In this document: piece by piece, positions 11,179 through 13,215 of the stretch
Layout of the letters: every line of letters starts with the position of its first letter
How positions within the stretch are numbered: position 1 is the stretch's first letter
Source: Candidatus Kaiserbacteria bacterium
GTDB taxonomy: Bacteria; Patescibacteriota; Minisyncoccia; Phycocordibacterales; UBA2100
NCBI GenBank assembly: GCA_016432285.1
Contig: CP066682.1
Location: forward strand, 439,072 to 503,071
DNA length: 64,000 bases
Direction: 5' to 3'
The notes under the pieces: model-generated
Databases searched by the model: none
Told to the model about the DNA's origin: nothing
The model's input: only the letters and a program-made list of their open reading frames with translations
Position numbers and translations under genes: made by a program

Positions 11179-11381
11179 AGAATAGATGAGTAGTGATTAA
11201 CGAACGTGCGGTACACACAAGCTAGTAACAGCTCACAATGTGGCCTATCATACCAAGAAATAATGAAGACGCGTACGGGATCGACATGAGTCAGCGGGAA
11301 CTGCGTGAACAGTATGTATTTTTGCTCGCGTTCGGCTATACTGCCGCGAGTCGTCAACGCAGAGCGCTGGCGATTCATATT

Positions 11382-11657
11382 CCGGGGTAACTCAATGGTA
11401 GAGTGGCTCCCTGTCGAGTAGGCAGCTTTTGATCGGAAGGTCAATCGAAAATTTCGGGATAACGGTGAACCCCTCGCCTCGGCAGGGCAACACCGTGGGA
11501 ACCCTAAGAGATAGGCCGTTATGCGGCAATCTCGCGGGGGCGCCGTAGAGACTAGATACCGAAGCACCGAGATCCGGTGATGATATAGTCCACGCCTTTA
11601 AGAAATTAGAGGATTCGTGTAAGGAGTAAGTTGTGGGTTCGAGTCCCACCCCCGGAG
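11382..11657 (+). tRNA. tRNA interrupted in the anticodon loop by a group I intron; most likely tRNA-Asn(GUU), alternatively tRNA-Thr(UGU)
   Basis: 5' exon 11382-11415: TCCGGGG acceptor, D-arm ACTC/AATGGTA/GAGT, anticodon stem GCTCC, loop CUGU. 3' exon 11620-11657: UAA + GGAGT stem + T-arm GTGGG-TTCGAGT-CCCAC + acceptor CCCCGGA + G73. U1-A72 and G73 match Asn. Exons total 72 nt. Confidence 0.7.
11416..11619 (+). ncRNA. group I self-splicing intron (~204 nt) inside the tRNA anticodon loop
   Basis: Conserved group I core elements R-like GTAGAGACTAGA and S-like GATGATATAGTCC. The 5' exon ends in U, which can pair as G-U with GCAG (the proposed internal guide sequence). The intron ends in G. Size is like Azoarcus-type tRNA introns. 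Confidence 0.65.
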
Positions 11658-11670
11658 CCTGAAGCAGTTG

Positions 11671-11696
11671 GACCCCGACGCGCGAGCGTTGGGGTC
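11671..11696 (+). terminator. hairpin GACCCCGACG-cgcgag-CGTTGGGGTC downstream of the tRNA (weak, no clear T-run)
   Basis: 10-bp stem with one mismatch. Confidence 0.3.
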
Positions 11697-11885
11697 TTAC
11701 TGATTCACCCCGGGGCGGGACTCGAAAGGCGGAGCGCCGAGCATCGGCGCGAGCCGGGGTCGAGAAACATTTTTTGAAAAAAATGTATTCGTGACCGAGT
11801 CCCACCCCGAGAGTGATTTTGCTCGAGCGGGTGGGGCAGATCATCCAACATTGACGGGCATAATACAGAGGTTCATACTTTCCTC

Positions 11886-12860
11886 ATGAACGACTTGGCG
11901 AAACTGAAGGAGGTACTTCCAGTTTTTGAACAGATAACTGTCGCCGACCTAAAAAGAACGGAGCTAGGCGTATTTAGTTTCGACGAAATTTTCGACACGA
12001 TTGGGAGCACATATGAGTTGCTCAAGAATCTTGCAAATCAAGAAGATGTTTTAAAGGAAGATTCGTACATTCCCTCACAATTAGTAAATAGCCTGAGAGA
12101 TAACGTCAACACATTCAACAATCTGGCCAACAAGGTGCGAGAGTTCGACGTAAAGGCCGGAGACCCAACACCGCGTCGTCAAAATCTCATCGACGAAATA
12201 AAGAGTTTCAAGGCGTCTGCGATAAGTCAGCTTCACCCTCTAGTCGCGTTAGTTCAGTTGCGTCAGCTGGACCCCGCAAAATACAGCGTAGGGTTGCAAA
12301 CTATGCAGGGCGAAGTGCAGAGCATACTGAAAAAGCTAAAGGAGAAGGATGAGGAGGCCTCCAAAACACTGCAAAAAATTAAAGACGTTTCTGCCTCGTC
12401 CGGTGCAGAAGCATACGCGCACGTCTTTTCGTCACAAGCAACTATTCACAAAAATACCGCAAAATGGTGGCTCTGGGCTGGCGTAGCATTTTTTGCTATT
12501 TTGGTTCTGTATCTTATCTACCTGCTGGCTAACGGTGTTCCAACATCGGAGGATTTAGTACATGCGATTCGAGATATCTCGCTCCGTGTCCTGTTCCTCA
12601 TTGCGATCTACTTCGCCCTTACGCAGAGCATTAAGAACTACAATGTGAACAAGCATCTACAAGTCGTGAATGAGCATCGACAAAACTCACTGAAAACATT
12701 TGAGGCGTTTCTAAATGCCGCTGCAACGGACGATGTGAAGTCCGCAGTACTCTTGCAAGCGACCAAATCAATATTTGATCCAGGCAAAACGGGATATCTG
12801 CAAAAAGAAGGCCAGGTTAGTTATTCGTTCAGTGTTGCTGATATCTTCAAAAAGAGTTAG
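11886..12860 (+). CDS. hypothetical 2-TM membrane protein in an AT-rich islet
   Basis: 324 aa. N-terminal ~190-aa helical soluble region. Two hydrophobic helices (WWLWAGVAFFAILVLYLIYLLA; LRVLFLIAIYFALTQSI). ~90-aa C-terminal tail. GC markedly lower than flanking DNA. Confidence 0.6.
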   Translation: MNDLAKLKEVLPVFEQITVADLKRTELGVFSFDEIFDTIGSTYELLKNLANQEDVLKEDSYIPSQLVNSLRDNVNTFNNLANKVREFDVKAGDPTPRRQNLIDEIKSFKASAISQLHPLVALVQLRQLDPAKYSVGLQTMQGEVQSILKKLKEKDEEASKTLQKIKDVSASSGAEAYAHVFSSQATIHKNTAKWWLWAGVAFFAILVLYLIYLLANGVPTSEDLVHAIRDISLRVLFLIAIYFALTQSIKNYNVNKHLQVVNEHRQNSLKTFEAFLNAAATDDVKSAVLLQATKSIFDPGKTGYLQKEGQVSYSFSVADIFKKS

Positions 12861-13065
12861 AGAGTTTCGCTGATTATCTGTTTTCAACGAAAGGGATTTG
12901 CGGACGCGGATGGGAGGGTGGACCAAGTACGCATGGATTCGGGGCCCCTCTCTTCCCGCCAAAAAATCCTCAATTCAAAAAATCTTTGGCTCGAACGCGG
13001 CCGCTGCGAAGGCGGCGGCGTGGTCTTCACGTTGCGCACACCGGGAGCGGATGTAGAGTGAGTGT

Positions 13066-13215
13066 ATGCAGGATCGAGAGCACGAAGAGTGGCTAGCCGA
13101 TGAGGCCCGAAAGAACGGCAAGAAACGCACACCGCCCGCGCGGCCTCCCACCGACGATGAGGGCGAAAAGGGCGGCCCGGAGCCGCTTGGATGGGATCCG
13201 GTGCTCGGCGTATGA
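13066..13215 (+). CDS. small basic/acidic hypothetical protein (49 aa)
   Basis: ATG...TGA ORF with its stop overlapping the ATG of the downstream gene (GTATGA). Confidence 0.25.
   Translation: MQDREHEEWLADEARKNGKKRTPPARPPTDDEGEKGGPEPLGWDPVLGV

Follow-up and report, generated by a model that had tools for sequence, protein, structure and literature searches.

A compact, ORF-less group I intron at site 35/36 of a tRNA-Asn(GUU) gene in a Candidatus Kaiserbacteria genome

The window analysed here is a 64-kb stretch of DNA from a Candidatus Kaiserbacteria bacterium, with a G+C content of about 59%. On its + strand it carries a tRNA gene whose two halves are separated by an insert within the anticodon loop. 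Reading of the sequence between 11200 and 11850 placed the gene at 11381-11657 (U1 to G73), comprising a 5′ exon at 11381-11414, an insert at 11415-11619 and a 3′ exon at 11620-11657, all in the same orientation. The 5′ exon contains the acceptor strand UCCGGGG, U8 and A9, the D arm (ACUC-AAUGGUA-GAGU), G26 and the anticodon stem strand GCUCC, followed by the loop nucleotides C32 U33 G34 U35 (CUGU). The 3′ exon resumes with U36 A37 A38 (UAA) and continues through the anticodon stem strand GGAGU, the variable loop AAGUU, the T arm (GUGGG-UUCGAGU-CCCAC) and the acceptor strand CCCCGGA to the discriminator G73. An earlier sequence-only reading of this DNA had recognised both tRNA halves and the insert that splits them; it began the gene at 11382 and gave the insert as 204 nt, values that are corrected here to 11381 and 205 nt. 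When run in intron mode, ARAGORN reported a single split tRNA in the 64 kb, exactly there, at 11381-11659. In its default mode the program reported no tRNA at this locus, and neither mode found a second tRNA-Asn within the window. G73 is followed by CC (11658-11659) and then by T, leaving the final A of the CCA end unencoded in this gene; the full CCA is encoded in some of its relatives.

The genes flanking the split tRNA are ordinary cellular ones, encoding an MFS transporter, an NAD(P)H-hydrate dehydratase, a PEBP and the formyltransferase Fmt. A 324-aa protein encoded in its neighbourhood has a 100% identical counterpart in a Candidatus Kaiserbacteria MAG. Elsewhere in the window, four further tRNA genes (Val-CAC, Pro-CGG, Pro-GGG and Ala-CGC) are clustered at 28222-28642, where G+C falls to 47% (versus about 59%), the only such drop in the 64 kb, and the two tRNA-Pro calls in this cluster overlap at base 28401.

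The boundaries of the insert were established from intron-less genes. A metagenome scan that used the 18-nt 5′-exon word of the window's tRNA as its query recovered 31 tRNA-Asn genes having this word, 26 of which are intron-less and read ...CCCTGT|TAAGGAG... across the junction. In six of these (the loci labelled L165, L143, L138, L147, L160 and L132) the exons are 100% identical to those of the window, and the one in L165, scored as a tRNA, reaches 70.4 bits. Several of the intron-less tRNA-Asn loci are also syntenic with the PEBP and Fmt genes of the window. Excision of 11415-11619 alone reproduces the intron-less sequence, a shift by one or two bases failing to do so, and the junction CUGU|UAA is therefore fixed uniquely. 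The intron-less orthologues thus set the position of the terminal guanosine (omega-G, 11619) independently, and they agree with the earlier proposal of a U as the last exon base (here U11414) and a G as the last intron base.

None of the three outcomes that the sequence-only reading had named as refuting an intron, examined directly or by approximation, was obtained. One of these was a failure to fold P1-P9 with the proposed splice sites; a complete P1-P9.0 structure could be drawn by hand, with every helix composed of Watson-Crick or G.U pairs, and it is accompanied by covariation across homologues, as described below. P1 (11411-11425) is formed by the exon bases CUGU and the first intron base, C1 (together 11411-11415), with the guide GGCAG (11421-11425), which puts a U11414.G11422 wobble at the 5′ splice site. 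The GCAG within this guide occupies intron nucleotides 8-11 (11422-11425), in keeping with the internal guide sequence that had been proposed 8 nt into the intron, and its partner in P1 is CUGU. P2 (11429-11444) is a 6-bp hairpin with a GGAA tetraloop, present in both the hand and the minimum free energy (MFE) folds, and all six of its pairs show compensatory changes. The 5′ strand of P3 (11452-11460) pairs with 11556-11564; its cells are 100% paired across homologues and four of eight pairs are compensatory. P4 (11462-11467 with 11491-11496) encloses P5 (11471-11474 with 11484-11487), the whole of 11462-11496 being backed by the hand fold, covariation and the MFE fold, and adenines are present in both J4/5 and J5/4. 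P6 and its long P6a-c extension span 11497-11544 in the hand and MFE folds, with only the basal pairs alignable across homologues.

The second half of the core is arranged around the two sequence blocks that had been singled out earlier as conserved group I elements. J6/7, the 5′ strand of P7 (11548-11554, with a bulged A11549) and the 3′ strand of P3 (11556-11564) together cover 11545-11564, and the block GTAGAGACTAGA lies at 11545-11556. P8 (11565-11579) is a 5-bp hairpin with a 5-nt loop, recovered by hand and by MFE folding and compensatory in four of five pairs; inspection showed no insertion between it and the P3 3′ strand. J8/7 and the 3′ strand of P7 (11586-11591) follow at 11580-11591 in the hand fold, with the block GATGATATAGTCC at 11579-11591. 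The intron ends at 11592-11619 with a 3-bp P9.0 (11592-11594 with 11616-11618), P9 (11595-11612, capped by a GAAA tetraloop) and the omega-G, G11619. P10 amounts to 2 bp at most. An unconstrained MFE fold recovers P2, P4, P5, the P6 extension, P7, P8 and P9 (z = -2.8). Structural features characteristic of a group I intron are present: a P1 with U.G at the splice site, a terminal omega-G, and a P3-P4-P6/P7-P3-P8 core with the P3/P7 pseudoknot. There is no homing endonuclease ORF inside the intron, since 205 nt leaves no room for one.

A local scan of 11300-11760 (461 nt) with the Rfam group I model RF00028 (Intron_gpI) gave a match at 11403-11612 that extends over the full length of the model (positions 1-253), with 34.6 bits and an E-value of 2.9e-7. 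Comparison with a group I covariance model, which the sequence-only reading had suggested as a check, hence comes out in favour of an intron in a local search, but the 34.6 bits fall short of the curated gathering score of 50 bits, and the intron is absent from whole-window Rfam scans both at gathering and at E <= 0.01. Scaled to the whole window, the E-value would be ~4e-5, and it is presumably the speed filters that discard the Intron_gpI match. The cut-offs given in published surveys are E < 1e-4 or 18-20 bits (PMC13011429; 10.1101/2020.01.27.920355), looser because matches can be significant and yet lie under the curated gathering score. The RF00028 alignment places P1, P2, P4-P6, P7, P8 and P9 and matches both conserved core blocks. 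Its own placement of P1 and P3, without the U.G at the splice site and with P3 essentially deleted, was discarded in favour of the hand model.

Homologues were collected by scanning one genome per GTDB species with both core blocks as the search pattern. This yielded at least 120 matches, nearly all of them in MAGs of Patescibacteria/CPR, which bears out the earlier remark that such introns are recurrent in CPR genomes. Among the matches listed, 89 fall within split tRNA genes. As the intron positions given by ARAGORN are arbitrary within about 2-4 nt, splice sites were re-derived by the rule that the exon ends in CUGU and the intron in G. The same rule served to re-derive the program's 'Thr tgt', 'Asp gtc i37', 'Ser' and 'His' calls, the single 'His' (L085) being a mis-bounded Tyr. 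The matches listed then include 82 introns at position 35/36, in 31 tRNA-Asn, 31 tRNA-Asp and 20 tRNA-Tyr genes. The exon sequence CUGU is found in all 82 and the guide GCAG in 81 of them. Thus, the hosts of the 35/36 introns among the matches listed are exclusively GUN-anticodon tRNAs of the queuosine family (Asn, Asp and Tyr), a range that would follow from the pairing of GCAG with C32-U35, the CUGU common to GUN tRNAs.

Covariation was assessed in a plain MAFFT alignment (A1) of the 31 tRNA-Asn introns from CPR genomes among the matches listed. Across these 31 introns, 90.3% of cells are paired, compared to 78% in shuffled alignments and 33-42% when the pairing partners are slid. Compensatory changes occur in 29 pairs, and the covariation score is 0.406 versus 0.156, with none of 500 shuffles reaching the observed value. 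Within the same set, P3, P4, P5 and P8 are all backed by compensatory changes, 30 of 31 introns have the U.G at the splice site, and the P1 pair adjoining it switches between CG (12), GC (10) and AU (7). P7 and the two core blocks provide no covariation information because the search pattern required them, which renders them invariant.

The peripheral elements of these introns vary. Tetraloops and 11-nt receptor motifs were tallied with regex patterns and heuristics, a crude census that serves for qualitative description only. By eye, most Asn introns among the matches listed have a GAAA L2 and a longer P8 with a CCUAAG...UAUGG-like receptor motif; the window's intron and those of L088, L035, L071 and L028 have a GGAA L2 and a short 5-bp P8 (CACCG-AGAUC-CGGUG). 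These two elements are located at 11435-11438 and 11565-11579 in the window, and in columns 65-68 and 264-296 of A1. As tertiary-contact elements, L2 and P8 appear to co-vary across the Asn introns. In addition, a CCTGAGC...GTCGAAGG module recurs in differing peripheral loops of related introns, namely the P1 loop of L053, P6 of L028, L059 and L121, P6 of L130 in reversed orientation, and the P5 region of L004 (L004:1240-1265); the window's intron does not contain it.

We consider it very probable (about 0.93) that a compact, ORF-less group I ribozyme of 205 nt interrupts this Kaiserbacteria tRNA-Asn(GUU) gene between positions 35 and 36. Transcription of the split gene would give a 277-nt precursor, in which the guide GGCAG would pair with C32-U35 and the first intron base to form P1, the U35.G wobble marking the 5′ splice site. 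With the P3-P9 core folded, a free (exogenous) guanosine would attack after U35, the terminal G11619 would then take over the G-binding site and the exons would be ligated. The predicted product is a 72-nt tRNA-Asn(GUU) with the anticodon loop CUGUUAA. That the window's intron is catalytically active is suggested by its homology to members of the family that self-splice in vitro and by its retention of family-conserved nucleotides: of 88 columns with at least 90% conservation across the 30 other Asn introns among the matches listed, it keeps 87, and so shows no sign of decay.

Alternatively, the element could be a group I intron by descent that has lost catalysis or requires a protein factor; the tRNA gene would then be a pseudogene, or its transcript would mature only with assistance. 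The low RF00028 score might be read in this way, as might the weak P10, the mobile-element remnant that adjoins the gene, and a P8 that is short and without the CCUAAG/UAUGG-like motif of many relatives. However, the combination of short P8 and GGAA L2 recurs in L088, L035, L071 and L028, which argues for a maintained subtype rather than decay. All helices of the window's intron are intact, the family-conserved positions are retained as noted above, the exons are 100% identical to those of functional-looking intron-less genes, and the 64-kb window offers no other tRNA-Asn. On balance, loss of autonomous splicing is considered very improbable.

The assignment of the host as tRNA-Asn(GUU), which the sequence-only reading had called probable, required attention because two splice choices are compatible with a U closing the 5′ exon and a G closing the intron: Thr(UGU) with the intron at 33/34, or Asn(GUU) with the intron at 35/36. 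A tRNA-Thr(UGU), with exon 1 ending at 11412 and exon 2 starting at 11618, is ARAGORN's own label for the split gene (Thr(tgt) i(33,205)) and yields an ordinary-looking loop, CUUGUAA, but it is already refuted by the intron-less orthologues, which carry the predicted ligated exons CUGU|UAA and read CCCTGTTAAGGAG, not CCCTTGTAAGGAG. Moreover, U11412 is paired with A in P1 and the U.G wobble sits at 11414 instead. Genuine intron-less CPR tRNA-Thr(UGU) genes (n = 21) have G1-C72 and U73, unlike the window's gene, in which U1-A72 and G73 are present as previously noted; the latter combination is shared by 31 of 31 Asn-class genes among the matches listed and by one intron-less CPR tRNA-Asn. The same two-base Thr(UGU) miscall is documented in the literature, where the sequenced spliced product had the 35/36 junction (PMC13011429), and the label given by ARAGORN was therefore set aside as a known artefact. 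Once 11415-11619 is removed, ARAGORN itself calls the spliced product tRNA-Asn(gtt). The assignment to tRNA-Asn(GUU) is thus supported by the P1 wobble at U35, by U1-A72 and G73 and, decisively, by the junction of the intron-less genes.

The sequence-only reading had also placed tRNA-Asn outside the classic bacterial cases of intron-bearing tRNAs. This is true, although the Asn class was already listed in 2020 and self-splicing of a related member was reported in 2025/26 (PMC13011429). Williams 2020 (10.1101/2020.01.27.920355) raised the number of tRNA intron types from the classic four to 21, a set that includes 'Asn.4Ug' according to Nakagawa et al. (PMC13011429). The latter authors (mSystems 2026; preprint July 2025, 10.1101/2025.07.03.662931) found 35/36 introns in 15 tRNA-Asn, 3 tRNA-Asp and 1 tRNA-Tyr among 95 complete Patescibacteria genomes, and assigned Patescibacteria introns to subgroup IA by covariance models (PMC13011429). 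They reported that ARAGORN and tFind both miscall the 35/36 Asn introns as Thr(UGU) 33/34, and that tRNAscan-SE likewise misses such split genes (PMC13011429). Precise self-splicing in vitro was demonstrated there for the Asn intron of GCA_016700035.1 and the Asp intron of GCA_001029755.1, and was abolished by changing the omega-G to C (PMC13011429).

The window's intron is a member of this class, with which it shares the host tRNA, the 35/36 site, the phylum, the U(-1)/omega-G rule, the ARAGORN miscall and the lack of a homing endonuclease gene (HEG). Over aligned positions it is 81% identical to a Paceibacteria Asn intron of the same length (GCA_030583765.1, 205 nt; Table S3) and 67% identical to the validated Asp intron of GCA_001029755.1 (196 nt; Table S3), which on reading of its sequence appears to have the same P1, core blocks, P9 and compact layout. 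Identity to the validated Saccharimonadia Asn intron of GCA_016700035.1 (234 nt) is 64% over aligned positions; its core is different and larger, an additional domain separating P7 from P8. Neither Table 1 nor the searched supplement text of the published study, which covers complete genomes only, names the genome of the window (PMC13011429). The window therefore adds one Kaiserbacteria example to the published 35/36 class and introduces no new principle.

Comparison can also be made with the classic tRNA introns, i.e., those of cyanobacterial Leu(UAA), fMet, Arg(CCU) and Azoarcus Ile(CAU). These belong to subgroup IC3, as opposed to the subgroup IA published for the Patescibacteria introns, and they occur in a different phylum and in different host tRNAs, at insertion sites 33/34, 34/35 or 36/37 rather than 35/36. 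In common with the window's intron, they are small (about 200-250 nt), ORF-less ribozymes of the anticodon loop, with a P1 that includes anticodon-loop bases and GNRA tetraloops on P2 and P9. The Azoarcus intron carries a GUAGAGACUAGA block and has a similarly compact P2-P9 layout, at about 205 nt. A search of a phage database with the whole precursor returned only core matches of 33-58 nt, to an uncultured phage and four Vibrio phages, and is silent on the origin of the intron.

The DNA immediately downstream of the tRNA gene has features of a mobile element. The remnant of a recombinase island abuts the 3′ end of the tRNA-Asn gene (window 11660-13190; counterpart L004:1486-4236). The relatives L004 and L148 carry inverted repeats, each about 160 bp long, that start at the tRNA 3′ end (L004 1486-1647 and 4068-4236) and enclose a large serine recombinase gene together with an uncharacterised 324-aa gene. 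The window retains the 324-aa gene (11886-12860) and has no recombinase, and fragments of the tRNA 3′ end recur downstream in inverted (11709-11726) and direct (11796-11813) orientation. Since homologues of the 324-aa protein adjoin a large serine recombinase in varied contexts, the gene is taken to belong to the mobile element and was dropped as a synteny anchor. The L004 locus, which was reached via this protein, contains a tRNA-Asn gene (L004:1145-1490). The orientation of the tRNA relative to the PEBP gene is flipped in the window as compared to L165, L141, L147 and L163, in which the two genes are adjacent and divergent.

Among the 31 tRNA-Asn genes with the window's 5′-exon word in the metagenome scan, the five that are not intron-less bear four different introns, all at 35/36. 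Two of these are compact, at 182 nt in L137 and 258 nt in L152. L148 bears a 273-nt intron of the form also present in L004, where a near-identical tRNA is likewise split at 35/36. The core of this form includes some 30 additional nt beyond the 5′ strand of P7 and reaches 82.8 bits on RF00028, compared to 34.6 for the window's intron. The fourth, the 536-nt intron of L168 (L168:2109-2644), lies between exons identical to the window's and contains in its P1 loop a 97-aa ORF identified as an HNH endonuclease by PHROGs (E 2.8e-24), for which a Pfam search gave no match. Synteny with the window extends to L148, L152 and several intron-less loci. Two or more distinct ribozyme cores, as well as an endonuclease-bearing form, therefore share the 35/36 site in near-identical exons.

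The occurrence of differing introns at one site, alongside intron-less genes with identical exons, suggests that turnover is faster than the HEG-less state of these introns would imply. Position 35/36 of tRNA-Asn could tentatively be viewed as a hotspot at which Paceibacteria still gain, lose and replace introns, as opposed to a site of static vertical inheritance, although we think this somewhat doubtful at present. If true, the limited horizontal transfer inferred in the literature for Patescibacteria introns would need to be qualified (PMC13011429). What is modestly new here is accordingly comparative, namely the intron-less genes with identical exons, several of them syntenic, and the presence of at least two unrelated cores at the same site. 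There is also a consequence for genome annotation. As default ARAGORN and Rfam at gathering both miss the gene, a genome such as this one would seem to have no tRNA-Asn, or else a spurious tRNA-Thr(UGU), and a split tRNA-Asn that is missed or miscalled distorts both completeness estimates and codon-usage inferences for CPR bacteria.
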